From positions 54,562,001 to 54,626,000 of the forward strand of contig NC_086097.1 of NCBI RefSeq assembly GCF_963921235.1: a DNA stretch of 64,000 nt, written 5' to 3'. Below are positions 652-56,949 of this stretch, one piece after another. A program made the translations under genes and the position numbers. The stretch is from Mobula hypostoma. Lineage: Eukaryota. Positions within the stretch are counted from its first letter, which is position 1; each line of letters starts with the position of its first letter. Below the pieces are notes generated by a model. The model did not search any database, had not been told where the DNA came from, and saw only the letters and a program-made list of their open reading frames with translations.

Positions 652-699
652 AACAAGTGATCATAACTCAGTTAGTGTGGGTGGAAGTCTAGTACTGGA

Positions 700-10886: not shown

Positions 10887-11246
10887 TTCTGGATTAAATC
10901 ATTTTCTCATTTTTCTGTTATCAGTAATTTAGTTGATTTTTGTTTTAAAGACCCACTGAGGCTTTTCCCCACCTTGGTGCCGAGAAATGCTTAATGAAAA
11001 TATAGAGAGAACTGAATCTGCTTCTGATAATGGGAAAACCATGAATGTTGTATACAATCAGTGTACAAAGGATTCATTCAGAAAGTCTGGATGTAATGAA
11101 TGGAACTTATAAGAATAGTAATTTCTGTGGCAGTTTGTACTGCCAGCATAGTAAGAACTTAGTGATATGTAATTAATGAGGTTCTCCTATATTAGAAATG
11201 GCATGTTTAAAATTATTTTGGTACATGTATGGTTATGCTTTCACAG

Positions 11247-11373
11247 AACCTTTGGTTTGCTAACCCTGGAGGAAGTAATAGTATGCCAAGCCGAACCCAT
11301 AGTTCTGTCCAACGTACACGCTCACTGCCTGTTCACACATCACCACAAACCATGTTGATGTTTCAGCAGCAAG
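11247..11373 (+). CDS. SAMD4A: SAMD4A internal coding exon: [42 protein letters not shown]
   Basis: Acceptor tttcacAG, donor GTgagt at 11374; 127 nt. Lies inside ORF 11229..11420 and is a highly recognisable SAMD4 motif. Confidence 0.96.
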
Positions 11374-12190
11374 GTGAGTCGAAGAGAAACATAAGTCAAT
11401 GTCTTTATTTAGGTGGGTAAAATTTAGCATCAGCTCTTAAATACTCTTGGAAAATATTATTCCTCAATTGTGACTCTGCATTCCTTTGAAATTGTGAAGA
11501 TAATTCTACCCTGCAAGGCCAGCATCTGCAGTGACTGGTTGGCTGAAGGCCAGAATATGCAGACGAGAATCAACTATGGCTGTACAAAGAAAAATGTATG
11601 ATGTTATTCAGATTACTAAATTGATTAAGCAGCAGGCATCGCTTGTGGAATCTGTATCTATAAATAACAGGGTGACTGTATCAGATCTTTAGTTAGCATT
11701 GTAGCATTGGCTCTATGTACAACTGAAATGTTATTGTGTCCATCTAAAACAAAATACTCCTTTTAAAATATTGTAGTATACCACATGCATCATGGAAGGT
11801 ATTATTGTCCTTAACTGAATAGTATGCTATGTAATAGATGATATTTTCCCTGAGCGGTAAATGCTTATAGATTGTCACCTTCTAAAATTTGTGTGTAGAA
11901 TAAGTAGAAGATTATAGAAAGAACTGCTTAAATACATTTCCTTCAAAATAAACAATAATTGCAAATAAGATTTTAATAGATTTTACAGTAGTGTGCAGCT
12001 TCATAAGAGGTATGATTTTTACTAAGGCAAAACATTTCCAATTTATGTTGCCATTAGAATTTCATTATTTTCACTCAAAAAAGGAAGTTTTATCTGACAG
12101 CTAGCTGAGATGTGTGGACCTGAGGGGTTTTGATACATAGTTTCAGTTGTTGGAAAGTTAGTAATTAGAGGGTATGAGCTAAAAAAAATA

Positions 12191-14515
12191 CAGTGCCTAT
12201 AAAAAGTATTCACCCCCCCCTTAGAAGTTTTCACGTTTTCTTGTTTTACAACATCGAATCACAGTGGATTTTTTTGACGCTGATCAACAGAAGAAGACTT
12301 TCATGTCAAAGTGAAAACAGATCTCTGTAAAGTAATCAAATTAATCACAAATATAAAACACAAAATAATTGATTGCATAAGTATTCACCCCCCCGCTTAA
12401 TATGACACACCAAATCATCACTGGTGTAGCCAGTTGGTTTTAGAAGACACATAATTAGTTAAATAGAGATGGAGACCTTTTTACAGTCAAGGTGTTAACA
12501 TAGAATAGTACAGCACAGTACAGGCCCTTCGGCCCACAATGTTGTATCGACCCTCAAACCCTGCCTCCCATATAAGCCCCCACCTTAAATTCCTCCATAT
12601 ACCTGTCTAGTAGTCTCTTAAACTTCACTAGTGTATCTGGCTCCACCACTGACTCAGTGCATTACACGCACCAACCACTCTCTGAGTAAAAAGCCTTCCT
12701 GTAATATCCCCCTTGAACTTCCCACCCCTTACCTTAAAGCCATGTCCTCTTGTATTGAGCAGTGGTGCCCTGGGGAAGAGACAATGGCTATCCACTCTAT
12801 CTATTCCTCTTATTATCTTGTACACCTCTATCATGTCTCCTCTCATCCTGCTTCTCTCCAAAGAGTAAAGCCCTAGCTCCCTTAATCTCTGATCATAATG
12901 CATACGCAGCATTCTGGTAAATTTCTTCTGTACCCTTTCCAATGCTTCCACATCTTTCCTATAGTGAGGCGACTAGAACCGGACACACTACTCCAAGTGT
13001 GGCCTAACCAGAGTTTTATAGAGCTGCATCATTACATAGTGACTCTTAAACTCTATCCCTCGACTTATGAAAGCTAACACCCCATAAGCTTTCTTAACTA
13101 CCCTATCCACCTGTGAGGCAACTTTCAGGGATCTGTGGACATGTACCCCGAGATCCCTCTGCTCCTCCACACTACTAAGTATCCTGCCATTTACTTTGTA
13201 CTCTGCCTCGGAGTTTGTCCTTCCAAAGTGTACCACCTCACACTTCTCCGGGTTGAACTCCATCTGCCACTTCTCAGCTCACTTCTGCATCCTATCAATG
13301 TCTCTCTGCAATCTTTGACAATCCTCTACACTACCTACAACACCACCAATCTTTGTGTCATCTGCAAACTTGCCAACCCACCCTTCTACCCCCACATTCA
13401 GGTTGTTAATAAAATGTTTCAATTGATTGTAGTATAAATACACCTGTATCCTGGCAAAAACTACACCATGAAGACAAATGAACACTCCAAGCAACTCTAC
13501 AAAAAGGTTATTGAAAAACAGGAGATCGATACAAGAAAATTTCCAAGTCGCTGACTATCCCTTGAAGTACAGTTAAGTCAATCATCAAGAAATGGGAAGA
13601 ATATGGCACAGCTGTAATTCTGCCTAGAGCAGGCTGTCCTCAAAAACTGAGTGACCGTGCAAAAATGACAACTCTGGAGGAGTTACAAGCTTCAGTGGCT
13701 GAGATGGGAGAGACTGCGTATACAGCAACTGTTGGCTGGGTACTTCACCAGTTGCAGGTTTATAGGAGAGTGGCAAAGAGAAAGCCACCGTTGGAGAAAA
13801 AACTTATATGAAATCTCAGCTAGAATTTGCCAGAAGGTATGTGGGAGACTCTGAAGTCAGATGGAAGAAGGTTCTAGGTCTGATGAAACTGAAATTGAGC
13901 TTTTTGGCCATCAGACTAAATGCTATTTGGCATAAACCAAACACCACACATCATGAAAAGCACACTGTCCCTACCATGGGGATGCTTCACTGCAGCAAGA
14001 CAATGACCCCAAGCATAAAGACAAAGCTACGCAGGAATGGTTTAAAAAGAACAAAGTTAATGTCCTGGAGTGGTCAAGTCAGAATTCAGACCTCAATCCA
14101 ATTGAGAATTTGTGGCTGGACTTGAAAAGGGCTGTTCACTCATGATCCCCATGTAATCTGACAGAGCTTGAGCAGTTTTATGAAGAAAAATGTGGATAAA
14201 TTGCAGTGTTCAGATGTGCAAAGCTGATAGAGACCTATCCACACAGGCTCGAGGCTGTAATTGCCGCCAAATGTGTATCGACTAGATACTGACTTGAAGG
14301 GGGTGAACACTTGTGCAATTAATTATTTTGTGTTTTATATTTGTAATTAATTTAGATCACTTTGTGGAGATCTGTTTTCACTTTGACATGAAAGAGTCTA
14401 TTTATGTTCGTCAGTGGCAAAAAAAGTCAAATTAAATCCACTGTGATTCAGTGTTGTAAAACAATAAAACATAAAAACTTCCAGGAGGGGGGATGAATAA
14501 TTTTTATCGGCACAG
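12191..14515 (+). mobile_element. Tc1/mariner transposon, IR/DR type, defective transposase (~13468-14292), interrupted by a CR1
   Basis: TA|CAGTGCC...GGCACAG|TA ends; ~210-bp TIRs with repeated AAGTATTCACCCCC; peptides FARRYVGDS..WKKVL and QQDNDPKH. Confidence 0.93.
12497..13413 (-). mobile_element. 5'-truncated CR1 LINE nested in the Tc1
   Basis: ORFs 12628..13494 include [20 protein letters not shown] and LERVQKKFTRML; the Tc1 sequence resumes on both sides. Confidence 0.92.
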
Positions 14516-14639: not shown

Positions 14640-15560
14640 TCAAAAGGTTCATGTATTATCAAAGTACACAACTCCAAAATTCTTCACGTAGCCGTGAAAC
14701 CTAGAAAGAAAAGAAAGGCAGCATGATCATCAACCCCCGAATCCCCCTCCCTGCAAAAAAAAACAAAAACGAATCAGGCCCATCAACCTATAAATCCCTT
14801 CTCCCACACAAAACCCAAGCAAAATGGATTAGACACATCAATCCCCAAAACCCTACTCCAGCACAAAAAAAAGAACAAAATGGATCAGGCACATCAACCT
14901 CCAAATCCCCCTCCCCACACACGAGAAAACGAGGAGATCAGGCAAAAAAAAAACAAAGCATATAAAAACTATAAGACTGAAAAAAGGTCTAAGTCCAAAG
15001 TCCAATCCAAAATGCAGAACGAACCTGGACCGCACTTTCCGCAGCGACAGACTCTCCTCTCTCTGGTACAGAGCAACCGATCAAAAGGCAAGCAGCCAAC
15101 ACTCACCATCTACCCTTGCTCTGATGCTTCAATTTTCTCATCACTTTAGCAGTGAGCAATTAGAGCTTTAATCGGTGAAATGGAGGTTGTGGTCTGTCTT
15201 GCAGCCTGCCTGCTACGAGGTTTGCATACGCTCCCTCTGCTTCCCGGAATCCTCTTGGAGACTGCAGAACACTGGAACCCCCAAAAGATCTCCAAACTTC
15301 TGTATTTGCCTTGATGTTTCAATTGATCTTGTCGCTTTAATTGGCTAAATGGGGTCAAACATCGGCTCACATGCATCCTGCAGTGATGAGGTTTGTTCAC
15401 GCTGTCTACTGCGCCAATGATCTCCAAACAGCAAAACACAAGCTCCCACAATTCTAGAATCACATTCAAGACAAGAAACAAATGTAAAAGACATAAAATA
15501 AGTGATAAAGGTGGTTTCATGATCTATTCAGAAGATGTCAACCTAAAGAGTGTTGTTTGC
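14640..15560 (-). mobile_element. Non-autonomous retro-repeat with Rex1-type tail and internal imperfect tandem units
   Basis: Begins with a GTTCA..TATTATCAAAGTAC tail motif shared with other Rex1-type ends; 3-4 related CATCAACC..AAATCCCC..CACA units at ~14725-14960. Confidence 0.45.
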
Positions 15561-27500: not shown

Positions 27501-29773
27501 CATAACCATATAACAGTTACAGCATGGAATCAGGCCATCTCAGCCCTTCTAGTCCATGCCTACTCTCACCTAGTCCCACCGACCTGCACTCAGCCCATAA
27601 CCCTCCATTCCTTTCCTGCCCATATAGCTGTCCAATTTAACTTTAAACGACAACATCGAACCTGCCTCAACCACTTCTGCTGGAAGCTCGTTCCACACAG
27701 CTACCACTCTCTGAGTAAAGCTCCCCCTCATGTTACCCCTAAACTTTTGCCCTTTAACTCTCAACTCCTGTCCTCTTGTTTGAATCTCCCCCACTCTCAA
27801 TGGAAAAAGCCTATCCACGTCAACTCTCTATCCCCCTCATAATTTTAAATACCCCTATCAAGTCCCCCCTCAACCTTCTACATTCCAAAGAATAAAGACC
27901 CAACTTGTTCAACCTTTCTCTGTAACGTAGATGATGAAAGCCAGGTAATATTCTAGTAAATCTCTGTACTCTCTCTATTTTGTTGACATCTTTCCAATAA
28001 TTCGGTGACCAAAACTGTACACAATACTCCAAATTTGGCCTCACCAATGCCTTGTACAATTTCAACATTACATCTCAACTCCTATACTCAATGCTCTGAT
28101 TTAAAAAGGCCAGCATACCAAAAGCTTTCTTCACCACCCTATCCACATGAGATTCCACTTTCAGGGAACAATGCACCATTATTCCTAGATCCCTCTGTTC
28201 TACTGTATTCTTCAATGCCCTACCATTTTCCATGTATGTCCTATTTTGATTAGTCCTACCAAAATGTAGCACCTCACATTTATCAGCGTTAAACTCCATC
28301 TGCCATCTTTCAGCCCACTCTTCTAACTGGCCTAAATCTCTCTGCAAGCTTTGAAAACCTACTTCATTTTCCACAACTCCACCTATCTTAGTATCATCTG
28401 CATACTTACTCATCCAATTTACCACCCCTTCATCCAGATCATTAATATATATGCCAAATAACATTGGACCCAGTACAGGATCCCTAAGGCACACTACTAG
28501 TCACCGGCCTCCAATCTGACAAACAGTTATCCACCACCACTCTCTGGCGTCTCCCATCCAGCCACTGCTGAATCCATTTTACTACTTCAATATTAATTCC
28601 CAACAATTGAACCTTCCTAACCAACCTTCCATGTGGGACCTTGTCAAAGGCATTACTGAAGTCCATATAGACAACATCCACCGCTTTACCCTCATCAACT
28701 TTCCTAGTAACCTCTTCAAAAAATTCAATAAGATTTGTCAAACATGACCTTCCACGCACAAATCCATGTTGACTGTTCCTAATCAGACCCTGTCTATTCA
28801 GATAATTATATATACCATCTCTAAGACTACTTTTCATCAATTTACCCACCACTGATGTCAAACTCACAGGCTGATAATTGCTAGGTTTACTGTTAGAACC
28901 CTTTTTAAACAATGGAACAACATGAGCAATATGCCAATTTTCCGGCACCATCCCCGTTTCTAATGACATTTGAAATATTTCTGTCAGAGCCCCTGCTATT
29001 TCCACACTAACTTCCCTCAAGTTCCTAGGGAATATCCTGTCAGGACCTGGAGACTTATCCACCTTTATATACCTTAAAAGCTCCAGTACTTCCTCTTCTT
29101 TAATCATCATAGTTTCCATAACTTCCCGACCTATTTCCCTTATCTTACACAATTCAATATACTTCTCCTTAGTGAATACCAAAGAAAAGAAATTGTTCAA
29201 AATCTCCCCCATCTCTTTTGGCTCCACAGATAGCTGTCCACTCTGATTGTCTAAGGGACCAATTTTATCCCTCACTATCCCTTTGCTATTAATATAACAG
29301 TAGAAACCCTTGGGATTTATTTTCACCTTACTTGCCAAAGCAACCTCATATCTTCTTTTAGCTTTTCTAATTTCTTTCTTAAGATTCTTTTTACATTCTT
29401 TACATTCCTTGAGCACCTCATTTACTCCATGCTGCCTATATTTATTGTAGATAACTCTTTTTTTGACCGAAGTTTCCAATATCCCTTGAAAACCATGGCT
29501 CTCTCAAACTTTTAACCTTTCCTTTCAACCTAACAGGAACATAAAGATTCTGTACTCTCAAAATTTCACCTTTAAATGACCTCCATTTCTCAATTACATT
29601 CTTCCCATAAAACAAATTGTCCCAATCCACTCCTTCTAAATCCTTTCGCATCTCCTCAAAGTTAGCCTTTCGCCAATCAGAAATCTCAACCCTGGGTCCA
29701 GACCTATCCTTCTCCATAATTATATTGAAACTAATAGCATTATGATCACTGGACCCGAAGTGCTCCCCAACAC
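27501..29773 (-). mobile_element. Relatively young 5'-truncated CR1 LINE (RT domain, frameshifted)
   Basis: ORFs of 91, 331, 139, 82 and 82 aa covering DKSPGPD, SCLTNLIEFFEEVT and [10 protein letters not shown] through to the 3' tail. Confidence 0.96.
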
Positions 29774-30300
29774 AAAGGGTATACTGACATTGGAGAGGGT
29801 TCAGAGAAGATTCACGAGAATAATTCCAGGAATGAAAGGGTTACCGTATGAGGAATGTCTGCCAGCTCTTGGGCTGTATTCCCTGGAGTTCAGGAAAATG
29901 AGGGGGGATCTCATAGAAATATTCCAAATATTAAAAGGCCTGAACAGATTAGATATGACAAAGTTATTTCCCATGGTAGGGGAATGTAGGACAAGAGGGC
30001 ATGACTTCAGGATTGAAGGATCTCCATTTAGAATAGAGATGCGAAGAAATTACTTTAGTCAAGAGAGTAGGAAATCTGTGGAATTTGTTGCCACGAGCGG
30101 CTGTGGAGGCCAAGTCGTTGGGTGCATTTAAGGCAAAGATAGATAGGTTCTTGATTAGCCAGGGCATCAAAGGGTATGGGGAGAAGGCAGCGGAGTGGAG
30201 ATGACTGGATGAATTGGATCAGCCCATGATTGAATGGCAGAGTAGACTCAATGGGCTGAATGGCCTACTTCTGCTCCTTCTATATCTTATGATCTTATAT
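29774..30300 (+). mobile_element. CR1 LINE 3' end of a different subfamily, abutting the previous copy
   Basis: LERVQRRFTRIIPGMKGLPYEE; tail TCTTATGATCTTAT. Confidence 0.9.
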
Positions 30301-33200: not shown

Positions 33201-34527
33201 TTCTCCTCTAAAACCCTTTATCCCAAATGGGTTTCTTACAGTGTGTCCAGGTACAATGCTTCACATGAATTGGAATTATAAACATTTTTAACGCCAGATT
33301 AAATTTAGTCCAGTATTTTCTAAATGGCCAGCATTCATTGCCCAATGCCAGATGAGGCTCTTCAAATCAGTATGATGATGGTATTTTCATTATGATTGAT
33401 TTAGAGTATTTTGATTAGTGACGAATTAGAGCCAATCTATGTCTATGTTAGATTGATGTGCTATTTTGAAGGAACTTCCAGGTTTCAATGTTCCCTTCTG
33501 TTTCCTGTGCTGGTCTTTTCAATTAATCGTGGTAAGGGGTTGGAGAGATCTTGCCAAAGGGTACCTCTAGAGCATTTTATAAATAATATACAATGTAACC
33601 ATTGTACATCTACAGCATGATGAAGGGAGTGAACGTTTTAAAATGGTGAGTGGACATTGATAAAGTAGATTATTTTGTTCCTGATGATGTTGAGTTTCTC
33701 AACTACTGTTGGAGCTAATCATAATCAGGCATATGTTGGGAAATTTGTCATCTTTGTGGCAGACATACCATGCAATACATAATAATGCGCGCGTACACAC
33801 ACACACACACCCGTTAAATAAGTAGTGAGGTAATGTTTTTGGGTTCAATGTGCATTCAGAAATTGGATAGCAGAGGGGAAGAAGCTGTTCCTGTTCAATG
33901 TGTGCCTTCAGACTTTTCTACCTCTTTCTTGATGGTAGAAATGAGAACAAGGCATGGGGGCCCTTCATGATGGGTGCTGCCTTTTTGAGGCATCATTCCT
34001 TGAAGATGTCCTAGATACTGCAGAGGCTAATGCCCATGATGGAGCTAACCAAGTTCACAAATCTCTGCAGCTTATTTTGATGCTGTGTAATAGAACCATG
34101 TCTCTCCCAGCACCCCTCCCCATCCCCCACCATACCAGACAGTGATGCAGCCAGTTAGAATGCTCTACACGGTAAATCTGTAGAAATTTGTGAGTGTCTT
34201 TGATGACATACAGTGCTAATAAAAAGCATTCGCCCCTTCTTGGAAATTTTGATGTTTTATTGTTTTACAACATTGAATCGCAGTTGATTTAATTTGGCTT
34301 TTTTGACAAAGATCGACAGAAAAAGACTCTTTCATGCCAATGTGAAAACAGACCTCTACAAAGTAATCTAAATTAATTACAAATATAAAATACGAAATAA
34401 TTGATTACATAAATATTCACCTCCTTCAAGCCAGTATTTAGTAGATGCACCCTTGACAGCAATTACAGCCTTGAGTCTGTGTGGTTAGATCTCTATCAGC
34501 TTTGCACATCTGGACACTGTAATTTTT

Positions 34528-35514
34528 AGGAAGAGGTACAGTCGATGTTTCGGGCCGAGACCCTTCGTCAGGACGAACTGAAGGAAGAGATAGTAAGAGG
34601 TTTGAAAGTGGGAGGGGGAGATCCAAAATGATAGGAGAAGACAGGAAGGGGAGGGATGGAGCCAAGAGCTGGACAGGTGATTGTCAAAAGGGATACGAGA
34701 GGATCATGGGACAGGAGGGCCAGGGAGAAGGAAAAGGGGGAGGGGGGGACACAGAGGATGGGCAAGGGGTATAGTCAGCGGGACAGAGGGAGAAAAAGGA
34801 GAGAGAGAGAAAGAATGTGTGTATATAAATAAATAATGGATGGGGTACAAGGGGGAGGTAGGGCATTAGTGGAAGTTAGAGAAGTCAATGTTCATGCCAT
34901 CAGGTTGGAGGATACCCAGACAGAATATATGGTGTTGTTCCTCCAACCTGAGTGTGTCTTCATCTTTACAGTAGAGGAGGCCATGGATAGACATATCAGA
35001 ATGGGAATGTGATGTGGAATTTAAAATGTGTGGCCACTGGGAGATCCTGCTTTCTCTGGCGGACAGAGCGTAGGCAGTCAGCAAAACGATCTCCCAGTCT
35101 GCGTCGAGTCTCTCCAATACATAGAAGACCACATTGGGAGCACTGGATGTAGTATATCACCCCAGCCGACTCACAGGTGAAGTGTCGCCTCACCTGGAAG
35201 GACTGTCTGGGGCCCTGAATGGTGGTAAGGGGGGAAGTGTAAGGGCATGTGTAGTACTTGTTCCACTTACAAGGATACGTGCCAGGAGGGAGATCAGTGG
35301 GGAGGGATGGGGGGGAACGAATGGACAAGGGAGTCGTGTAGGGAGTGGTCCCTGCGGAAAGCAGGGGGAGGGAAAGATGTGCTCAGAGGTGGTCTCGGCC
35401 CAAAACGTCGACTGTACCTCTTCCTAGAGATGCTGCCTGGCCTGCTGCGTTCACCAGCAACTTTGATGTGTGTTGGTTGAATTTCCAGCATCTGCAGAAT
35501 TCCTCGTGTATGCG
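34528..35514 (-). mobile_element. Penelope-like element: minus copy plus short inverted 3' end, nested in the Tc1
   Basis: ORF 34996..35328 GVIYYIQCSQCGLLCIGETRRRLGDRF (GIY-YIG); inverted terminus 35390-35514; imperfect 12-bp flanking duplication. Confidence 0.9.
34539..34576 (-). ncRNA. Minimal type-I hammerhead ribozyme motif (AUC variant)
   Basis: Minus strand: cgtc CTGACGA agggtctcggccc GAAAC ATC gactg. Confidence 0.62.
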
Positions 35515-38492
35515 ACCGTATTTTTTCCTTGTTTGCAAAACTGCTCAAGTTATGTCAGATTGCATGGGGATCATGAGTGAACAGCCCTTTTCAAGTCCAG
35601 CCACAAATTTGCAATTGCAGTGAGGTCTGGACTCTGACTTGGCCATTCTAGGACATTAACTTTGTTGTTATTAAGCTATTCTTGTGTAGCTTTGGCTTTA
35701 TGCTTGAGGTCATTGACTTGCTGGAAGACATCTTCTCCCAGGTCACAGTTCTCTTGCAGACTGCATCAGGTTTTCCTCCAGAATTTCCTTGTATTTTGCA
35801 GCATTCATTTTACCCTCTACAAGCCTTCCAGGGCCTGCTGCAGTGAAGCATCCCCACAGCATGAAGCAGCCACCATGTACGGTGTTTGACTTACGCCAAG
35901 CATAGAGTTTAGTCTGATGGCCAAAAAGCTCAATTTTGGTTTCATCAGACCATAGAACCTTCTTCCAGCTGACCTCAGAGTATCCCACATGCCATCTGGC
36001 AAACTCTAGCCAAGATTTCATTTGAGTTTTTATCAACAGTGATTTTCGCTTTGCCACTCTCCCATGAAGCTGCAACTGGTGAAGCACCCAGGCAACAGTT
36101 GTTCTACGTGCAGTCTCTCCCATATCAGCCACTGAAGCTTGTAACTCCTTCAGAGTTGTCATGGGTCTCTTGGTGGCCTTCATCACTAGTCCCCTTCTTG
36201 CACGGTTGCTCAGTTTTTGAGGACAGCCTGCTCTAGGCAGATTTACAGCTGTGCCATATTCTTTCCATTTTAGATTATGAAGACACGTAGTCCTCTTTTA
36301 TTGTCATTTAGTAATGCATGCATTAAGAAATGATACATTATTTCCTCCGGTGTGATATCACAAAACACAAGACAGACCAAGACTAAAAAAACTGACAAAA
36401 CCACATAATTATAACATATAGTTACAAACAGTACAACAATACCATAACTTGATGATTGATTTAACTGTACTCCAAAGGATAGTTAGTAACTTGGAATTTT
36501 TCTTGAATCCATCTACTGACTTGTGTATTTCAATAACCCTTTCGTGGAGTTGCTTGGAGTGTTCTTTTGTCTTCATGGTGTAGTTTTTGTCAGGATGCTA
36601 ACTCACCAGCAGTTGGACCTTCCAGATACAGGTGTATTTTTACTACAATCAATTGAAGCACCTTGATTGCACATGGTTATCTCAATTTAACTCATTATGT
36701 GACTTCTAAAACCAATTGGCTGTACCAGTGATGATTTGGTGTGACATAGCAAACGGGGTGAATACTTATGCAATCAATTATTTTGTGTTTTATATTTGTA
36801 ATTAATTTAGATCACTTTGTAGAGATCTGTTCTCACTTTGACATGAAAGAATCTTTTATGTTGATCAATGTCAAAAAAAGTTAAATTAAATCCACTGTGA
36901 TTCAAAGTTGTAAAACAATAAAACATGAAAGCTTTTAAGATGAGTGAATAGGTTTTATTGGCACTGTAGCAAATCTCCTCAAACTGCTAATGAAATATTG
37001 CCACTGTCATGCCTTCTTTGTAGCTGCAAAGATATGTTGGAAACAGGATAGATCTTCAGAGATATTGACAGCTAGGAACTTGAAATTGCACACTCTTTGC
37101 ACTTCAGATTCCTGGATGAGAACTGATGTGTGTTCCCTTGTCTTACCCTTTCTGAAGTGTACAGTCAGTTCTTTGGTCTTACTGGCATTGAGTGCAAGGT
37201 TGTTGCTGCAGCACCACTCAACCAGCTGATCTATCTTGCTCCTGAACGCCTTCTCACCACCATCTGAAATTCAGACAACAATAGAATCATCAAATTTATA
37301 GATGGCATTTGAGCTGTGCCTAGCTGCACAGTAATGGGTGTAGAGAGAATAGAGCAGTGGGCTAAACGCACATTCCTGAGGTCCGACAGTGTTGATTGTC
37401 AGTGAGGTGGAGATGTTATTTCCAAACCACACAGATTGTGGTCTTCCTCTTAGGAAGTCAAGGATCGGGTTTCAGGGGGAAGTACAGAGGCCCAGATTCT
37501 GGAGCTCTTCAATCAGAGCTGTAGGAGTGATTGTGGTAAACACTGAGATATAGTCAATAAACAGCATCCTGACATGGGTATTTGAATTGTCCAGATGATC
37601 GAAGGCCATGTGAAGAGCCAATCAAGTTGCATTCTCCATAGACCTCTTGTGCTGATAGGCAAATTGCAGTGGGTCCAGGTCCTTGCTGAGACAGGAGTTA
37701 ATTCTAGCCAAAACCAACCTCTTGCTGTTTATTGATTATGACTCAGTGCTACTGGATGATAGTTGTTAAGACAGCACACCCTGCCCCTGCCAAAGGACTT
37801 AGGCCCGAATTGTCGACTGTACTTTTTTCCATATTTGCTGCCTGGCCTGCTGAGTTTGTCACCCTGCCCCTCTTGGGCACTGGTATAATTGTTGCCCTTT
37901 TGAAGCAGGTGGGAACTTCTGACTGTAGCGGTGAGAGCTTGAAAATGACTTTGAACACCCCTGCCAGTTGCTTGGCACAGGTTTTCAGAGCCCTTCCACG
38001 TGCTCCATCTGGGCCCATCACCTTGTTTGAGGGTCCATGCTCCTGAAAGATGGCCTAACATTGGCCTCTGAGACAGAAATCATTGGGTCACCGGGCGCTG
38101 CAGGGATCCTCACAGCTGTAGTTTTATTCTCCCTTTTAAAGTGTGCACTAAAGGCATTGAGCTCACCTGAGAGTGAAGCATCACTGCCATTCGTCATGTT
38201 AGGCTCACTTTGTAATGGCCTGTAAACCTTGCTAGAGTTGAGGTGCATCTGATTCAGACTTGTTCCTTTGTGCTTCAGCAAGTCATACCTGGTTTTCTTG
38301 TACAGACCAGACCTGAATGCCGCAGATCTAGCCCTTGGCAGACTATGAACCAAGCTGATCCAAGCAAATGGAATGTATTACATTATTTTCCTAACTCAAG
38401 GTTTACAATTGGAGGTGGGATGAAGCTTTGGAGAATCAGGAAGTGAATAGCAATCCTCTTCATCATGCTGCTCTTCCAGTATGTTTCTGATA

Positions 38493-45020: not shown

Positions 45021-46598
45021 GTGAAATCTAGACAGTGAAGATGTCAGATTACTCAGTAGGTGAACATTTAGAAGACAGTGACCACAGCTCCCTGAGTTTT
45101 ACCTTGGCTTTGGAGAGCGATAGGAGTAGATGGTATGTGAAAGTATTTAACTGGGGGAGGGGAAATTAGAATGTTATTAGGTAGGAACTTAGGAGTGTAA
45201 ATTGGGAATAGATGTATTCAAGGAAATGCACAATGGAAATGGGAGCACTTGCGTAATTCTCTGTATAGGTTTGTCCATGGGGCAGGGAAAGGATGGTAGG
45301 GTGAAGGATCATGGTTGACAAGACATGTGGACTATCTAGTCAAGAGGTAGAAAGAAGCTTAAACAATGTTCAGGCAGGTTCTAGAGAGTTGCAATGTAGC
45401 CAGGAAAGAATTTAAGGATGGACTTAGGAAAGTTTGAAGGAGGGCCTGACAAGGCCTTGGCTGGTAGGATTAAGGAAAACCCCAAGAGTGAGGAAATGAC
45501 TGATCAGGGATAAAAGAGGAAACATGCCTAGAGTCAGAGGAAGGAGGAGAGGTCCTTAATGAATCCATGCTAGGCTCATTGAAAAAATCAGGCATGGGGT
45601 TCAGGGAAGCTTTGTTGTATGGCTTTAGAATTGGCTTGCACATGGAAGGCAGCAGTTGGTTGTAGACTGAAATACATTCTGCCTGGAGATTGGGGATCAG
45701 TGGTATTCTGTAGGGATCTATTGTGGGATCTGTGCTCTTTGTGATATTTTTAATGACTTGGATGAGGAAGTGGAAGCATGGGTTAGTAAGTTTGTCAGTG
45801 ACATAAAGGCTAGTGATGTTGTGGATAGCGTAGCAGGTTGCCGAGGTTTACAACAGGACATTGATAAGATGCAGAGCTAGGCTGAGAAGTTGCAGACGGA
45901 ATTCAACCTGGAAAAGCGTGAAGTACTTCACTTGGGAAGGTTGAATTTGAAGGCAGAGTACAGGGCTATTGGTGGGATTGTCAGCACTGTAAATGAACAG
46001 AGGAATTCAGCGCCCATGTCATTAGATCTCTCAAAGTTACAATGCAAGTCGATAGGGTTGTTAAGAAGGCGTAGAATGTGCTGGCCCTCATTAGTTGGGG
46101 GATTGAGTTCAAGAGTTGTGAGGTAATGTTGCAGCTCCATAAAACCCTGATTAGACTACACTTGGAATATTGCGTTCGGTTCTAATCATCACGTTATAAG
46201 GATGTGGAAGCTTTAGAGAGGGTACACAGAAGATTTACCAAGATGTTGCCTGCCTTGGATAGCATTGTCTTCTGAGGACAGGTTGAGCGAGCTTGGGGTT
46301 TTCTCTTTGGAGCGAAGGAAGATGAGAGGTGACTTGATAGATGTGTAAAGATAATAAGAGATATTCATCAAATGGACAGCAAGAGACTTTTTGCTAGGAT
46401 GGAAATGGCTAATAATAGGGGCATAATTTTAAGGTAGGATTTTTATACAGCATGATGGATGCGTGGAACATGCTGCTGGAGATGTTGGTAGAGGCAGAGT
46501 GGAGGGCTATGTAGGAAGGAAGGGTTAGATTGATCTTAGAGCAGGTTGGCACAACATCATGGGCTGTAGGATGCATTGTTCTAGAAATCAAGTCAGCC

Positions 46599-49440
46599 AA
46601 ATATGAGGGCGTGGATTGACACGTGGAATTACGACGTTGTAGCAATTAGTGAAACTTGGCTAAAGGAGGGGCAGGACTGGCAGCTTAATATTCCAGGGTT
46701 CCGATGTTTCAGATGTGATCGAGGCAGAGGAATGAAAGCTGGGGGAGTAGCATTGCTTGTTAGGGAAAATATTACAGCAGTGCTCAGGCAGGACAGATTA
46801 GAGGGCTTGTCTACTGAGTCCTTATGGGTGGAGCTGAGAAACAGGAAAGGTATGGCCACATTAGTGGGATTGTATTACAGACCACCCAATAGTCAACGAG
46901 ACTTGGAAGAGCAAATCTGCAGAGAGACAGCAGGCAACTGCAGGAAACATAAAGTTGTGGTGGTAGGGGATTTTAATTTTCCATATATTCATTGGGACTC
47001 CCATACTGTTAGGGGTCTAGATGGTTTAGAGTTTGTAAATTGTGTTCAGGAAAGTTTTCTAAATCAATATATAGAGGGACCAACTAGAGGGGATGCAATA
47101 TTGGATCTCCTGTTAGGAAACGAGTTAGGACAAGTGACAGAAGTTTGTGTAGGGGAGCACTTTGGTTCCAGTGATCATAACACCATTAGTTTCAGCTTAA
47201 CCATGGACAAGGATAGACTGGTCCTAGGGTTGAGGTTCTTAACTGGAAGAAGGCCAAATTTGAAGAAATGAGAAAGGATCTAAAAATCGTGGATTGGGAC
47301 AGGTTGTTCTCTGGCAAGGATGTGATCGGTAGGTGGAAACCCTTCAAAGGAGAAATTTTGAGAGCGCAGAATTTGTATGTTTCTGTCAGGATTAAAGGCA
47401 AAGTGAATAGGAATAAGGAACCTTGGCTCTCAAGGGATATTGCAACTCTGATAAAGAAGAAGAGGGAGTTGTATGACATGTATAGGAAGCAGGGAGTAAA
47501 TAAGGTGCTTGAGGAGTATAAGAAGTGCAAGAAAATACTTAAGAAAGAAATCAGGAGGGCTAAAAGAAGACATGAGGTTGCCTTGGCAGTCAAAGTGAAG
47601 GATAATCCAAAGAGATTTTACAGGTATATTAAGAGCAAAAGGATTGTAAGGGATAAAACTGGTCCTCTTGAAGATCAGAGTGGTCGGCTATGTGTGGAAC
47701 GAAAGGAAATGGGGGAGATCTGAAATAGGTTTTTTGTGTCTGTATTTACTAAGGAAACTGGCATGAAGTCTATGGAATTAAGGGAAACAAGTAGTGAGAT
47801 CATGGAAACTGTACAGATCAAAAAGGAGGAGGTCCTTGCTGTCTTGAGGAAAATTAAAGTGGATAGATCCCCGGGACCTGACAGGGTGTTCCCTCGGACA
47901 TTGAAGGAGACTAGTGTTGAAATTGCAGGGGCCCTGGCTGAAATATTTAAAATGTCGCTGTCTACAGGTGAGGTGCCGCAGGATTGGAGAGTGGCTCATG
48001 TTGTTCCATTGTTTAAAAAAGGATCGAAAAGTAATCCGGGAAATTATAGGCTGGTAAGTTTAACATCGGTAGTAGGTAAGTTATTGGAGGGAGTACTAAG
48101 AGACAGAATCTACAAGCATTTGGATAGACAGGGATTTATTAGGGAGAGTCAACATGGCTTTGTGCGTGATAGGTCATGTTTGACCAATCTATTGGAGTTT
48201 TTCGAAGAGGTTACCAGGAAAGTGGATGAAGGGAAGGCAGTGGATATTGTCTACATGGACTTCAGTAAGGCCTTTGACAAGGTCCCGCATGGGAGGTTAG
48301 TTAGGAAAATTCAGTCGCTAGGTATACATGGAGAGGTGGTAAATTGGATTAGACATTGGCTCAATGGAAGAAGCCAAAGAGTGGTAGTAGAGAATTGCTT
48401 CTCAGAGTGGAGGCCTGTGACTAGTGGTGTGCCACAGGGATCAGGGCTGGGTCCATTGTTATTTGTCATCTATATCAATGATCTGGATGATAATGTGGTA
48501 AACTGGATCAGCAAATTTGCTGATGATACAAAGATTGGAGGTGTAGTAGACAGTGAGGAAGGTTTTCAGAGCCTGCAGAGGGACTTGGACCAGCTGGAAA
48601 AATAGGCTGAAAAATGGCAGATGGAGTTTAATACAGACAAGTGTGAGGTATTGCACGTTGGAAGGACAAACCAAGGTAGAACATACAGGGTTAATGGTAA
48701 GGCACTGAGGAGTGCGGTGGAACAGAGGGATCTGGGAATACAGATACAACATTCCCTAAAAGTGGCGTCACAGGTAGATAGGGTCGTAAAGAGAGCTTTT
48801 GGTACATTGGCCTTTATTAATCAAAGTATTGAGTATAAGAGCTGGAATGTTATGATGAGGTTGTATAAGGCATTGGTGAGGCCGAATCTGGAGTATTGTG
48901 TTCAGTTTTGGTCACCAAATTACAGGAAGGATATAAGTAAGGTTGGAAGAGTGCAGAGAAGGTTTACAAGGATGTTGCCGGGACTTGAGAAACTCAGTTA
49001 CAGAGAAAGGTTGAATAGGTTAGGACTTTATTCCCTGGAGCGTAGAAGAATGAGGGGAGATTTGTTAGAGGTATATAAAATTATGATGGGTATAGACAGA
49101 GTGAATGCAAGCAGGCTTTTTCCACTGAGGCAAGGGGAAAAAAAAACCAGAGGACATGGGTTAAGGGTGATGGGGGAAAAGTTTAAAGGGAACATAAGGG
49201 GGGGGCTTCTTCACACAGAGAGTGGTGGGAGTATGGAATGAGCTGCCAGACGAGGTGGTAAATGCGGGTTCTTTTTTAACATTTAAAAATAAATTGGACA
49301 GATACGTGGATGGGAGGTGTATGGAGGGATATGGTCCGTGTGCAGGTCAGTGGGACTAGGCAGAAAATGGTTCGGCACAGCCAAGAAGGGCCAGAAGGCC
49401 TGTTTCTGTGCTGTAGTTTCCATGGTTCTATGGTTCTATA
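46599..49440 (+). mobile_element. Young CR1 LINE with near-complete ORF2 (APE endonuclease plus RT), disabled
   Basis: ORFs of 222, 151, 289 and 206 aa with ISETWL, YYRPP, GDFN, SDH and KFADDTK; stops at 47721 and 48603, frameshift near 47220; tail (ATGGTTCT)n. Confidence 0.97.
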
Positions 49441-50215: not shown

Positions 50216-50551
50216 AAGCTGGAACTAACAAAACTTAAATATTAAATTAATATACCAGACTTCAAGATTTAGCTAAATAAACAAAAGTAATTACAATAGG
50301 ATAAAGAAGCCCCATTAAGAAATCAAGTAAAGTAGACTAGCGTTTTCAAAATTGGGAAAAACTGAGGTAAAGTAATGGGATTTTCCCTTCTCTAAGAATC
50401 GCAGAAAATTTGGTTGTTCACAATACAACAATCAAAGGTTAGTGAGTCCATTTAAGATTGCCAAAGGAGATGGTAGAAAGTTAAGCAAAGCAGCACACAT
50501 AAAAGTTGCTGCAGAACGCTGCAGGCCAGGCAGCATCTCTAGGAAGAGGTA

Positions 50552-50589
50552 CAGTCGACGTTTCAGGCCGAGACCCTTCGTCAGGACTC
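50552..50589 (-). ncRNA. Minimal type-I hammerhead ribozyme motif (intact core)
   Basis: Minus strand: agtc CTGACGA agggtctcggcct GAAAC GTC gact; stem I agtc/gact. Confidence 0.75.
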
Positions 50590-51810
50590 ACTGAAGGAAG
50601 AGTTAGTAAGAGATTTGAAAGTTGGAGGGGGAGGGGGAGATCCAAAATGATAGGAGAAGACAGGAGGGGGAGGGATGGAGCCAAGAGCTGGACAGGTGAT
50701 TGGCAAAGGGGATATGAGAGGCTCATGGGACAGGAGGCCTCGGGAGAAAGAAAGGGGGAGGGGGGAAGCCCAGAGGATGGGCAAGGGGTATAGTGAGAGG
50801 GACAAAGGGAGAAAAAGGAGAGAGAGAGTATATAGAATAATAAAGAAGAAATAAATAATGGATGGGGTGGTGGGGCATTAAAGGAAGTTAGAGAAGTCAA
50901 TGTTCATGCCATCAGGTTGGAGGCTACCCAGACAGAATATAAGGTGTTGTTCCTCCAATCTGAGTGTGGCCTTATCTTTACAGTAGAGGAGGCCGTGGAT
51001 AGACATATCAGAATGGGAATGGGACATGCAATTAAATGTGTGGCCACTAGGAGATCCTGCTTTCTCTGGCGGACAGAGCGTAGGTGTTCAGCGAAATGGT
51101 CTCCCAGCCTGGTCGGGTCTCGCCAATATATGGAAGGCTGCTTCGGGAGCACCGGACGCAGTATATCACCCCAGCCGACTCACAGGTGAAGTGTCGCCTC
51201 ACCTGGATGGACTGTCTGGGGCCCTGAATGGCTCCTGATGCGGCCTTCTATATATTGGTGAGACCTGATGCAGGCAGGGAGACCATTTCACTGAACACCT
51301 ACGCTCTGTCCGCCAGAGAAAGCAGGAACTTCCAGTGGCCACACATTTAATTGCACGTCCCATTCCCAGTCTGATATGTCTATCCACAGCCTCCTCTTCT
51401 GTCAAGATGAAGCCACACTCAGAATGGAGGAACAACACCTTATATTCCATCTGGGTAACCTCCAACCTGCTGGCATGAACATTGACTTCTCTAACTTCTG
51501 TTAATGCCCCACCTCCCCTTCTGCTATTTATTTCTTCTTTATTATTATTTATATATATATATATATATTCTCTCTCCTTTTTCTCCCTCTGTCCCTGTCA
51601 CTATACTCCTTGCCCATCCTCTGGGCTTTTTTCCCCCTCTTCTCCCTTTCTTTCTCCCTGGGCGTCCTGTCCTATGATCCTCTCATATCCCTTTTGCCAA
51701 TCAACTGTCCAGCTCTTGGCTCCATCCCTCCCCCTCCTGTCTTCTCCTATCATTTTGGATCTCCCCCTCCCCCTCCCACTTTCAAATCTCTTACTCACTC
51801 TTCCTTCAGT

Positions 51811-51848
51811 TAGTCCTGACGAAGGGTCTCGGCCTGAAACGTCGACTG
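51811..51848 (+). ncRNA. Minimal type-I hammerhead ribozyme motif (intact core)
   Basis: tagtc CTGACGA (51816-51822) agggtctcggcct GAAAC (51836-51840) GTC gactg; predicted cleavage after C51843. Confidence 0.78.
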
Positions 51849-52627
51849 AACCTCTTCCTAGAGATGCTGTCTGGCCTGCTGTGTTCACCAGCAACTTTGA
51901 TGTGCGTTGCTTGGAATTCCAGCATCTACAGATTTCCTCATGTTTGTGAGGTTAAGCAAAGTTTATTTTTATATGCAGGTGTTATTCAGGATGTGGATTC
52001 TGAGACACCCAATACAGTGTATGAGTCATCATCTATGGGCAGAGGGAATAATCTGATACAGTAGTTTAAAATGTTTTTTTTTACTTTTTGACCCAAATGA
52101 CTGCTGACTTTCAATTAGTTTAATATTTTTATATATCTCTTGCTTGTTGAAGGTGCTGTGTTTTCTTTTGGAGTATACCATGATTTATTTGGCTAAAATA
52201 CTTCCCATGACATTACTAAAAATGTGAAAACAGAAATCTAGGTTTTCATATGCCAGTACTTGGGATAGACCAATTCTTGGTGATTGATTGTAAATTGAAA
52301 CAAACAAGGCAATACACAAGTAGGTGACGATGATCTTTTAGTAATGTGGCATTTTAAAATAATTTATTTAAAATTAATTGGCTAATATATTAGGAAAATT
52401 CAGTCACTATAGAAGAGAAACATAATTAAGAATAGCCCAAGCTGGTGAATCAGTGTTTCTGAACTGTAATCCTCCTACAAGTTCCTTTCAATTGGTTTCC
52501 CTGCTCATTGCAACCAACCACTGTAGTTTTACAAACTTAAGCATTCCCAATGGATTGAGATAAAGTTACTTTCACTTTGGGTGGAATCATTGCTAACAAC
52601 ACAATAATCCTGATTTTACTTGCACCA

Positions 52628-52992: not shown

Positions 52993-53606
52993 AAATAACT
53001 AACTAGGTTGGTCCAATTTTAGGAATAAACAAACAAATCTTATACAACTTAAAGTTGTTGCAGAATACCTGCCTGTAAACTGCCTGTACTTTTTGCTAAT
53101 TAGGATAAGCACACACTTACATTGAGTATATTATAAAGTAGCAACAACTTCAACCAGTTAAGGGTTTTGCACCTTTGAATTTCCCCCTTTCCCCCATTTA
53201 GGAAAGTGGGGGTAGAGTTACTGACCAAATTAAAGACCAAGATAAATGTTGGTCTGCAGGCATGTTGAGGACTATGGGGCAAAATCAGTAAAGTGAAACT
53301 GAGCTACGATTACATCAGCCATGATCTTATTAAACGGAGGAACTGCACCAAGGGGCTGCATAACCCACCTCTCCGTCACTATTTGATCTCTCAAACATAT
53401 ATGAAGGGGCATATTAAAGCCTTGCCCACTAACATAAGAAAGAAAACATTAACAGCTGGCTGTCACAAATAAAAATAATCAAATGTTCACAAATCTCTAA
53501 TTTTACAGTAACATTAAGAATGAATTAAAACAATTCACATTGTAAGTAAATTAATGAAAGTTATATAAAACTCAAGTGAATCTCACTAACACGAGGAAAT
53601 CTGCAG

Positions 53607-55406
53607 ATGCTGAGAGAGGTCTGGAGTGGGATGAGGACCATCACTGGGTTCCGGGAAACTAGTAACAGAGGAGCTGAGGGCAGTGTGGACAGGGCCAACG
53701 AACTTAACCTGTTCTTTAACAGATTCGACATTGTGGCCCCTGCCCATCCCCTTCGTGAGTCATCTGTTGTTGGCCCCCAACCAACACATATTCCACTCTC
53801 CCCTCCTACCCCTCCTCACAGTCCCCCACCCTGCTCTCATGACTATACCTCTTCCCAACATGAAACCACCACAGTGGGCTTCACAGCTGAACAGGTGAGA
53901 AGACAGCTGAAACGTCTCAACCCAAGCAAGGCTGCAGGACCGGATGGTGTCAGTACCAGGGTGCTCAAAGCCTGCGCCCCTCAGCTATGTGGAGTACTTC
54001 GCCATGTATTCAACCTGAGCCTGAGGCTCCAGAGGGTTCCTGTGCTGTGGAAGACGTCCTGTCTCGTCCCTGTGCCGAAGACGCCGCGCCCCAGCGGCCT
54101 CAATGACTACAGACCGGTGGCATTGACCTCCCACATCATGAAGACCCTGGAGAGACTTGTTCTGGAGCTGCTCCAGCCTATGGTTAGGCCATACTTAGAT
54201 CCCCTCCAGTTCGCCTACCAGCCCCGACTAGGAGTTGTGGATGCCATCGTCTACCTGCTGAACCGTGTCTACGCCCACCTGGACAAGCCAGCGAGCACTG
54301 TGAGGGTCATGCTTTTTGACTTCTCCAGTGCGTTCAACGCCATCCGTCCTGCTCTGCTGGGGGAGAAGCTGACAGCGATGCAGGTGGATGCTTTCCTGGT
54401 GTCATGGATTCTTGATTACCTGACTGGCAGACCCTTATACGTGTGCTTGCAACACTGTGTGTCTGACAGAGTGATCAGCAGCACTGGAGCTCCACAGGGG
54501 ACTGTCTTGTCTCCCTTTCTCTTCACCATTTACACCTCAGACTTCAACTACTGCACAGAGTCTTGTCATCTTCAGAAGTTTTCTGGTGACTCTGCCATAG
54601 CTGGATGCATCAGTAAGGGAGATGAGGCTGAGTACAGGACTACGGTAGGAAACTTTGTCACATGGTGTGAGCAGAATTATCTGCAGCTTAATGTGAAAAA
54701 GACTAAGGAGCTGGTGGTAGACCTGAGGAGAGCTAAGGTACCGGTGACCCCTGTTTCCATCCAGGGGGTCAGTGTGGACATGGTGGAGGATTACAAATAC
54801 CTGGGGATATGAATTGACAATAAACTGGACTAGTCAAAGAACACTGAGGCTGTCTACAAGAAGGGTCAGAGCCGTCTCTATTTCCTGAGGAGACTGAGGT
54901 CCTTTAACATCTGCCGGATGATGCTGAGGATGTTCTTCGAGTCTGTGGTGGCCAGTGCGATCATGTTTGCTGTTGTGTGCTGGGGCAGCAGGCTGGGGGT
55001 AGCAGACACCAACAGAATCAACAAACTCATTCGTAAGGCCAGTGATGTTGTGGGGATGGAACTGGACTCTCTGACAGTGGTGTCTGAAAAGAGGATGCTG
55101 TCCAAGTTGCTACCATCTTGGACAATGTCTCCCGTCCACTACATAATGTACTGGGTGGGCACAGGAGTACATTCAGCCAGAGACTCATTCCACCGAGATG
55201 TAACACAAAGCGTCATAGGAAGTCATTCCTGCCTGTGGCCATCAAACTTTACAACTCCTCCCTTGGAGGGTCAGACACCCTGAGCCAATAGGCTGGTCCT
55301 GGACTTATTTCCTGGAATAATTTACATATTACTATTTAACTATTTATGGTGCAACTGTAACGAAAACCAATTTCCCCCAGGATCAATAAAGTATGACTAT
55401 GACTAT
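53607..55406 (+). mobile_element. Young 5'-truncated Rex1 retrotransposon with a 401-aa RT ORF
   Basis: KAAGPDGV, DYRPVALTSHIMKTLERL, DFSSAFN and GAPQGTVLSP; catalytic motif reads KFSGDS; AATAAA followed by (GACTAT)n tail. Confidence 0.96.
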
Positions 55407-55473
55407 TTCAAGCAACACACATAAAAATTGCTGGTGAATGCAGCAGGCTAGGCAGCATCTCTAGGAAGAGGTA

Positions 55474-55511
55474 CAGTCGATGTTTCGGGCCAAGACCCTT
55501 CATCAGGACTA
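55474..55511 (-). ncRNA. Minimal type-I hammerhead ribozyme motif (AUC variant)
   Basis: Minus strand: tagtc CTGATGA agggtcttggccc GAAAC ATC gactg. Confidence 0.65.
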
Positions 55512-56949
55512 ACTGAAAGAAGAGCTAGTAAGAGATTTGAAAGTGGGAGGGGGAGGGGGAGATCCGAAATGATAGGAGAAGACAGGAGGTGGAGGGATGG
55601 AGCCAAGAGCTGGACAGTTGATTGGCAAAAGGGATACGAGAGGATCATGGGACAGGAGGCCTCGGGAGAAAGACAAGGTGGGGGGGAACCCAGAGGATGG
55701 GCAAGGAGTGTAGTGAGAGGGACAGAGGGAGAAAAAGGAGAGAGAGAGAGAAAGAATGTGTGTATATAAATAAATAACGGATGGGGTACAAGGGGGAGGT
55801 GGGGCATTAGCAGAAGTTAGAGAAGTCAACGTTCATGCCATCAAGTTAGAGGCTACCCAGACGGAATATAAGGTGTTGTTCCTCCAACATGAGTGTGGCT
55901 TCATCTTTACAGTAGAGGAGGCCGTGGATAGACATGTCAGAATGGGAATGGGACGTGGAATTAAAATGTGTGGCCACTGGGAGATCCTGCTTTCTCTGGC
56001 AGACAGAGCGTAGGTGTTCAGTGAAACGGTCTCCCAGTCTGCGTTGGGTCTCGCCAATATATAGAAGGCCACATCGGGAGCACCGGACACAATATATCAC
56101 CCCAGCTGACTCACAGGTGAAGTGTCGCCTCACCTGGAAGTTCTGTCTGGGTCCCTGAATGGTGGTAAGGGAGGAAGTGTAAGGGCACGTGTAGCACTTG
56201 TTCCGCTTCCAAAGATAAGTGCCGGGAGGGAGATCAGTGGGGAGGGATGGAAGGCATCACCGGAAGAGGCTTCGCAGTAGTGAATTTAAAAACGCAAACG
56301 CAAGGAAATCTCACTGTTCACTTAATCCCATCATTAGAAACCAGTGCTTTAACATGTTCAATTTATGTTCTTTACTTGCCTCTTCACTACTTCATCTAAG
56401 CCACACCTTGAATACGTCTATTGGCAACTCTGTTAATCACCAATCATAATGGCACAGAATTTGCAGTTGCAATACTGATGAACTATCAGCATTTACCACT
56501 GAAAATGGTTCTACAATTTTTTTTCTATGAGCGGTTATAATATGTACTATATTTTTCTCTGACACAGGAGACCACTTGGACCATTGAGTGCATACCTAGT
56601 CTCAGAACAATTACATTCACCCACCTGTTTCGCTGCACTGCACCTTACACAGAAATCCTGAAGCTATTTTCAGTGGTTGGACTTTTAATGCTGAGAAAAA
56701 TAAATTGACCAAAATGTTAACTAGTTAAAATTTCAAGCTGTAGTAAAATAGAACATAGAACAATACAGGCGCTTCAGCCCACGATGTTGTGCTGACTTTT
56801 TAACTTCAAGGTCATTCCAACCATTCCCTCCCGCATACCCTCCTCTTTACTTTCATCCATATGTCTGTCTAAAAGACTCTTCAATCTCCCTATGTATCCA
56901 CACTTCCCACCACCCCGGCAGTGTGTTCCACACAATTAGCACTCTCTGT

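Follow-up and report, generated by a model that had tools for sequence, protein, structure and literature searches.

The hammerhead-like motifs scattered over this stretch of ray DNA raise the question of whether they are self-cleaving RNAs at work in the genome or the remains of a retroelement whose source copies cut themselves. The window, by which we mean the whole 64,000-nucleotide stretch analysed, had been described in an earlier note as holding a minimal hammerhead in the terminal repeats of Penelope-like elements (PLEs), with both core boxes, stem II, stem I and an NUH triplet, and with an ACGT palindrome in place of an intramolecular stem III; both parts of this description were borne out. 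The 36-nt consensus of that note was found without mismatch at 51812-51847 on the plus strand and 50553-50588 on the minus strand, and with two mismatches each at 34540-34575 and 55475-55510, both on the minus strand. These four near-full matches in the 64-kb window compare with 0.00 by chance (100 shuffles); the bare core pattern is weaker, with four matches against a shuffle mean of 0.81, and one of 100 shuffles reached four. The broken copies reported at 4678, 35390 and 37786 were recovered by BLAST and alignment, the second of them at 35391, and an nhmmer profile of the seven motifs returned the same seven in the window, with no eighth at E<=1. The 35391 copy lacks the first core box and carries G12>A, and the 37786 copy is diverged; the other five are as follows.

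51811-51848, plus strand: minimal type-I hammerhead, core and palindrome intact, with G10.1-U11.1; predicted cut after C51843
50552-50589, minus strand: second hammerhead, in the opposite arm of insertion 1, with a 4-bp stem I and G10.1-U11.1
34539-34576, minus strand: damaged hammerhead; G16.2>A breaks the palindrome and A2.4>C breaks stem I
55474-55511, minus strand: damaged hammerhead; G16.2>A breaks the palindrome, with neutral changes at N7 and in the loop (C>T)
4678-4700, plus strand: broken hammerhead in insertion 4, with a 15-nt deletion through core and stem II, and G1.1>T

The register of the 51811 motif runs from the stem I 5' strand through C3-A9, one extra A (between 9 and 10.1), a 4-bp stem II and a 4-nt loop to G12-A14, the palindrome A15.1-C-G-U16.1, C17 (position 51843) and the stem I 3' strand. 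It reads CUGANGA, GAAA, the ACGU palindrome and a GUC triplet, and no intramolecular stem III was found in it, ACGU being the proposed dimer interface. Stem I, which closes the motif, stem II and the extra base 9/10.1 are present by register and covariation, and the core boxes CUGANGA and GAAA, together with U16.1-H17, are complete in four of the seven motifs. The palindrome is ACGU in the 51811, 50552, 35391 and 4678 motifs and has decayed to ACAU in 34539 and 55474; that such AUC variants come from CpG decay, as had been proposed, is upheld by the sister arm at 35391, which belongs to the same insertion as 34539 and still reads ACGT. At position 11.1, U is present in both 'intact' cores (G10.1-U11.1) and C in the 34539, 55474, 35391 and 37786 copies; G10.1-U11.1 is also found in some natural PLE hammerheads (supplement file 2 of PMC4209133), and a literature search gave no paper naming 'U11.1' among those listed. 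The Rfam hammerhead families gave no match in the window at gathering threshold, and within 50400-52100 a search up to E 10 gave two unrelated chance matches and no hammerhead. Folding energies of the motifs are ordinary compared with shuffles (z -1.2 to +0.8). Since Rfam gives no score and folding energy is ordinary, the identity of the motif rests on sequence context and comparison.

The carrier is an endonuclease-positive Neptune-type PLE of the ray, with the motif in its 3' pseudo-LTR (pLTR); the Neptune-type label is provisional, its linker being common to Neptune and Nematis. Its coding part is represented by one feature.

55846-56256, minus strand: Cys linker and GIY-YIG endonuclease C-terminus of a 5'-truncated PLE ORF

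Pfam PF01541 matched the GIY-YIG domain in one of the three PLE fragments scanned (55846-56253, minus strand; E 1.1e-4, 22.9 bits against a cut-off of 22.6), and the hammerhead follows about 310 nt downstream of the endonuclease stop on the same strand, sense to the ORF. A protein search with the endonuclease fragment gave 14 proteins among 171 candidates, the best relative being 92% identical (Mobula hypostoma), with 89% identity in Hypanus sabinus; on this basis a myliobatiform ray is the probable host. In the alignment, these relatives have RT motifs, then a C-x4-C-x2-C linker, then the endonuclease; this linker marks Neptune and Nematis (10.1101/2021.04.23.441226; PMC3846280). The family resembles the Neptune clade in its RT, Cys linker, C-terminal GIY-YIG, pLTR, inverted 5'-truncated arm, one-sided tail and target duplications of 8-12 bp, and differs in that the window holds no full ORF; the window copies contain no RT core of this PLE family, and no full-length or tandem ray element was found in the window. 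PLE ORF or pLTR sequence also turns up in five RefSeq ray gene models (P0003, P0004, P0008, P0017 and P0018), of which four bear host gene names; this is either exonisation or an annotation artefact.

The seven motifs belong to five 5'-truncated insertions, and PLE pieces cover 7% of the 64-kb window, which was noticed for its PLE pieces.

50491-51950: insertion 1, a head-to-head pair of 5'-truncated PLE 3' ends, the minus arm spanning 50491-51230 and the plus arm 51231-51950
50480-50490 and 51951-51961: target duplication of insertion 1, 11 bp
51916-51950, plus strand: PLE 'tail', an optional extension of about 35 nt, in the plus arm of insertion 1 only
34528-35515: insertion 2, a fold-back PLE fragment within a Tc1-like DNA transposon relic
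35391-35515, plus strand: inverted arm of insertion 2, beginning within stem II, with G12>A and a tail
53578-56308, minus strand: insertion 3, with an 8-bp duplication read by eye
about 3728-4760: insertion 4, older, of a second subfamily, holding the 4678 hammerhead
37789-37859, plus strand: insertion 5, a 71-bp 5'-truncated diverged piece of the second subfamily that starts within the core
37777-37788 and 37860-37871: target duplication of insertion 5, 12 bp, inside an older LINE

The two arms of insertion 1 have diverged at 60 of 660 sites (about 9%). The earlier note had singled out the cores at 51811 (+) and 50552 (-) as intact; they are exact matches to the consensus, but they prove to be the opposed arms of this one insertion, and both have the G10.1-U11.1 pair. 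A contig from the related organism B spans the flank to 51920 with nine differences and one gap over 232 bases, and insertion 1 appears to be common to this organism and the window species. Over the tail, summed contig depth drops to 0.13-0.17 of the preceding bins. The Tc1-like host of insertion 2 is identified by a Pfam HTH_Tnp_Tc3_2 match at 35743-36294, and the only exact target duplication found for this insertion is 6 bp long. Between the tail of insertion 3 (53579-53612) and its body lies an RT-bearing LINE that arrived later (about 53613-55404, plus strand); this LINE is 5'-truncated and has a 410-aa open frame (RVT_1 E 1e-21). At the 5' end of insertion 3 (56257-56308, minus strand) the last part of a tail and about 35 more bases precede the linker; these extra bases may be the start of the element body past the pLTR, otherwise absent from the window. 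The second subfamily, to which insertions 4 and 5 belong, differs from the other copies in its 3' flank, and insertion 4 also contains a short internally inverted endonuclease segment at 4171-4303. Inverted 5'-truncated arms, a one-sided tail and target duplications are thus all present among these insertions, which make a tidy local example of PLE insertion anatomy; inverted, fold-back arms, optional tails and target duplications of 8-10 bp are described PLE features (10.1101/2021.04.23.441226; PMC3846280).

Other repeats surround these insertions. APE/RT LINE relics lie at 27569-30131 (minus strand), 46585-49360 (plus strand) and 10476-13415, in opposite orientations and with about 75% identity; we take them to be CR1-like. 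Tc1-like transposase relics (HTH_Tnp_Tc3_2) were found at 13665-14424 and 34299-36297, the second being the one interrupted by insertion 2, and a 55-bp tandem repeat of 3.5 copies lies at 14728-14921.

Searched by tblastn with full relatives, four of the five insertions contain endonuclease coding sequence, with staggered 5' ends. This bears on whether the motifs might instead come from a non-autonomous retrozyme or a SINE-like satellite with a hammerhead, and not from the ends of an autonomous PLE. The 71-bp insertion at 37789 does lack coding sequence, and non-LTR retrozymes derive from PLE pLTRs and are present in the one chondrichthyan sampled in a recent preprint (10.64898/2026.07.22.740005); like these retrozymes and the satellite hammerheads of newt and Schistosoma, the ray motif is a type-I hammerhead that would act as a dimer. 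Retrozymes, however, are non-coding tandem arrays, while the ray motifs are dispersed ends of a coding element, and the window contains neither a tandem array of the motif nor the tandem non-coding hammerhead units that are the retrozyme hallmark. With the coding sequence in four insertions, this leaves a retrozyme origin hardly credible.

The best explanation, and one that we hold with high confidence, is that the motif is a minimal type-I hammerhead in the pLTR of a Neptune-type PLE, in which dimers of the source element cut while the copies in the window are dead-on-arrival ends. In the mechanism that we propose, the source element would have the layout pLTR-ORF-pLTR, a partial tandem giving one RNA with two same-strand hammerheads. 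The ACGU palindromes of the two copies would pair and build the missing stem III, and the resulting double hammerhead is predicted to cut after C17, slowly and probably with help from the element's own protein; the cut would help to process the element RNA, as other PLEs suggest. Beyond the cut site there are two end points, at about 70 and 107 nt, and reverse transcription would begin at either; the end points are observed here, and the start mechanism is taken from the Anolis element, in which the tail marks two internal starts (PMC11167929). Starts past the cut site would leave ribozyme DNA in almost every insertion, however 5'-truncated, and the five window insertions would be dead-on-arrival ends, two of them fold-back pairs, decaying by CpG mutation. 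The segment from the cut site to the end of the tail (51844-51950, plus strand) forms a long hairpin in two copies, not better than shuffles (z -1.2 and -0.7), and is a candidate RT start structure.

For the ray element the dimer step is proposed by analogy. That PLEs carry minimal type-I hammerheads, with dimers proposed as the cleaving form, had been stated in the earlier note, and the ray motif agrees with the published PLE consensus (PMC4209133); in that study, monomers of the minimal hammerhead (min-HHR) showed no cleavage and dimers cleaved weakly. The Anolis motif also cleaves, with C3G/G8C rescue, but it depended on the element protein to do so, and RNA-seq showed no ends at the cut (PMC11167929).

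The window copies themselves most likely do not cleave, as judged from their damage and from folding models. Five of the seven motifs are damaged, and the palindrome is broken in two of the four full ones (34539 and 55474), leaving C-A mismatches in the dimer helix. The two 'intact' cores, on opposite strands, cannot combine into a double hammerhead; folding of read-through RNA from either strand of insertion 1 predicts pairs between the arms for 37 of 38 ribozyme bases, which would bury the cores in a long duplex. The monomer MFE structure pairs the core with CGUC, and the dimer MFE structures are plain duplexes of -24 to -33 kcal/mol, against -11.9 to +1.0 for the double-hammerhead model, in calculations that ignore core tertiary contacts. 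A GAUG/CAUC pairing in 55474, considered as a compensatory change, was rejected as two CpG decays that keep an inactive fold.

These observations also weigh on a quite different reading, in which the dispersed copies are still at work in large numbers and cleave host transcripts, whether as monomers, in trans or by pairing with a nearby copy. Two motifs do keep every core base and the palindrome, with a G10.1-U11.1 pair that natural PLE hammerheads share (PMC4209133); CpG retention is higher inside the ribozyme than outside (see below); and at seven motifs per 64 kb, long introns would hold several same-strand copies. In sequencing runs guessed to be RNA, depth over the ribozyme and 3' part is 2.6-5x that of the upstream pLTR, while DNA runs give about 0.95 for the 3' part; none of the guessed runs is on record as RNA, they consist of contigs, from which neither ends nor strand nor level can be read, and assembly at low depth is biased towards conserved k-mers. 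A higher share of intact CpG in the same runs was set aside, as it may be an assembly-threshold effect. With most of the motifs damaged, the two intact ones forming antiparallel arms of one hairpin, published monomers inactive and dimers weak (PMC4209133), and no RNA ends at the Anolis cut site (PMC11167929), we regard a working population as improbable. The earlier suggestion that seven relics imply a very large population of self-cleaving motifs therefore stands in part: the family is very large, while an active cleaving population is unsupported, the relics amounting to five events with two intact antiparallel cores, and published monomers being inactive.

Relatives were sought by an endonuclease-anchored metagenome scan, in which 67 pattern matches reduced to 22 loci. 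A hammerhead descriptor run over these loci found six motifs in four of them (L001 twice, L003, L020 twice, L021), those of L020 and L021 being identical. All six lie on the sense strand, the 3' ones 307-513 nt past the endonuclease match, and all six are palindromic (AUAU or AAUU) though the palindrome was not required; shuffles gave 0-1 matches in each of 20 runs. Twelve loci extend far enough downstream to be rescanned with a looser pattern, which brought to light decayed motifs in L005 and L012 and nothing convincing in six; the remaining 10 loci end within 190 nt of the endonuclease match. The motifs of L005 (about 534) and L012 (about 3483) lie about 110 nt past the endonuclease match and are near the ray motif, but with CCGACGA (U4>C) and a damaged stem II. 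Those of L020 (446 and 3640) and L021 (3102) have the core variant U3-A8 (UUGAUAA), which is reported for Schistosoma PLEs (PMC4209133). L001 is a near-complete relative (269-3513) in which two hammerheads, 3152 nt apart, flank an open frame of 936 codons, and it is usable as a model of the autonomous layout. Among viral contigs, the protein scan gave no relative in 50 candidates, and the single DNA-pattern match (L023, left out of the descriptor shuffle control) falls within a long coding stretch of phage-like character and has neither GUC nor stem I; it was put down to chance.

Preferential conservation of the core and covariation of the stems, to which the earlier note had tied the hammerhead reading, were found between subfamilies and across PLE families. 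In an alignment of seven motifs, three of whose rows were chosen by a pairing descriptor and make the test partly circular, 92% of cells are paired with 18 two-sided changes, none of 500 shuffles being as high, and the palindrome varies as CG, AU or UA. Contig loose ends cluster exactly at 51812 and 51848 in all four sequencing runs; in run X1 they number 573 and 545, the largest of the six rows listed, in a table with 2437 further rows. Because the ends fall at these two positions and the flanks of the contigs ending there resemble the second subfamily, similarity between subfamilies is confined to the ribozyme. Among the four window copies, non-CpG differences number 2/112 in the ribozyme against 87/1326 in the pLTR flanks (p=0.04) and 34/968 in the endonuclease (p=0.57). 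CpG sites are kept at 17/24 in the ribozyme and 29/67 outside (p=0.03, a post hoc comparison of non-independent copies sharing sources); pure neutral decay does not predict such higher retention, which speaks against taking these copies as inactive relics. Families with nothing in common in their flanks still retain CUGANGA, GAAA, U-H and the palindrome. At the level of the family, conservation and covariation indicate that the ribozyme structure is under selection.

A further feature adjoins the 51811 motif.

51790-51813, plus strand: candidate 3' splice site, with a branch-like motif, a pyrimidine tract and CAG at 51807-51809

The CAG ends one base upstream of the stem I strand; the 95 nt before it are free of AG, and a second AG lies at 51812-51813, inside stem I. 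YAG sites as pyrimidine-rich as this one number 38 among 4072 in the window, and a canonical branch motif is present in one of five copies checked; a U-rich 5' flank is general to PLE motifs (PMC4209133). A protein search with the reading frame across the motif gave two proteins among three candidates, both RefSeq ray models: in XP_072132000.1, a predicted model, host sequence gives way to PLE sequence at the acceptor point, and in XP_062913069.1, also predicted, the switch falls two residues before it. In D. virilis Penelope an intron ends at helix I (PMC4209133), so that the two elements share a 3' splice site at the stem I 5' strand, shown there and a candidate here; in D. virilis Penelope, unlike the ray element, helix III is present but small and helix II is bulged. 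No AG lies next to stem I in the relatives L001, L003, L005 and L012. From the sequence we infer that splicing may occur at this acceptor.

Two further observations were set aside. A contig joint 51453>51813, which reads GT..AG if shifted by one base, occurs in one contig in each of the two RNA-guessed runs and in neither DNA run. It was not counted as a splice: the part between is marked as unknown, the short side measures 29 letters, and DNA runs also show joints to 51812. A diverged subfamily copy may account for it. The open frames that cross the pLTR without a stop are taken as a by-product of pyrimidine-rich sequence (in a second-frame search, none of five candidates was significant).

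The motif might instead be kept mainly as a splice acceptor or as a structure bound by protein or RT, with cleavage incidental. The pyrimidine tract and CAG adjoining stem I and the host-to-PLE switches in the two ray models would fit this, as would the Anolis ribozyme mutants, with which insertion by the element protein in vitro was unaffected (PMC11167929). Yet the core boxes, U-H and palindrome persist in families with unrelated flanks, the four relatives named above lack the AG, and the Anolis motif does cleave with C3G/G8C rescue, and we find this account very unlikely. The dimer hammerhead of a Neptune-type PLE remains the preferred reading, and the acceptor may be added to it in a more speculative form that we consider possible, if doubtful: the ray Neptune pLTR would have an acceptor fused to stem I, splicing would rewrite the stem I 5' strand and gate the ribozyme, and the dispersed copies, numbering in the tens to hundreds of thousands, would together be one of the largest hammerhead families of any vertebrate and, throughout the genome, a source of cryptic exons and fold-back RNA. 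Should the acceptor hold, the layout with an intron ending at helix I would be common to insect Penelope and vertebrate Neptune elements, and it would bear on the role of PLE hammerheads in vivo.

That PLE pLTRs carry hammerheads, and that these have spread massively through genomes, is already published: Cervera and De la Pena described the min-HHR of metazoan PLEs in 2014 and reported it in fish Xena, Poseidon and Neptune (PMC4209133). The ray motif is like the min-HHR in its type-I topology, the lack of helix III, the palindromic 15.2-16.2, the extra base 9/10.1, the U-rich 5' flank, the pLTR location and the predominance of solo truncated copies with some close opposite-strand pairs, and unlike it in a shorter stem II (4 bp). 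The supplement file searched lists no cartilaginous fish. The Poseidon element of Anolis carolinensis (PAc; Frangieh et al. 2024, PMC11167929) also has a hammerhead near the pLTR end and two genomic end points 30-40 nt apart downstream, but belongs to a different clade, and its ORF starts at stem II; no long ORF starts at the ray motif, and in the relatives L001 and L020 the first Met lies about 160 and 100 nt past the core. A literature search by title, abstract start and term counts returned no ray or shark account of this PLE family; preprint supplements and repeat databases lay outside its scope, and the supplements of the retrozyme preprint (10.64898/2026.07.22.740005) and of the Squalomix preprint may list the ray family. 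The portion of PMC6155905 consulted contains nothing on rays. The present results extend the known link between ribozymes and retroelements to a ray family.

How abundant the motif may be was estimated in two ways. The local density of 7 motifs per 64 kb corresponds to 109 per Mb (95% interval 44-225) in a window that was noticed for its PLE pieces; at this density a ray genome of 3.68 Gb, the size of that of the red stingray (10.1101/2025.06.08.657570), would hold a few hundred thousand motifs, which is a ceiling. Contig records matching 926 bases number 136,040 in run X1 and 125,585 in run X5, as a count of records and not of copies, and the summed depth at the ribozyme is about 10^6 (X1) and 4x10^5 (X5) times that of unique flank, again not a measure of copies; divided by 31 to allow for overlapping words, these depths would give a rough floor of 14,000-35,000 copies. 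Published copy numbers are about 4,000 in coelacanth and about 9,000 in Xenopus (PMC4209133), and the ray figure, which is not a direct count, is probably above both. With a very high copy number, rays would be well suited to measuring, in alignments of the subfamilies, how selection acts on the ribozyme, and the family is large by either estimate.
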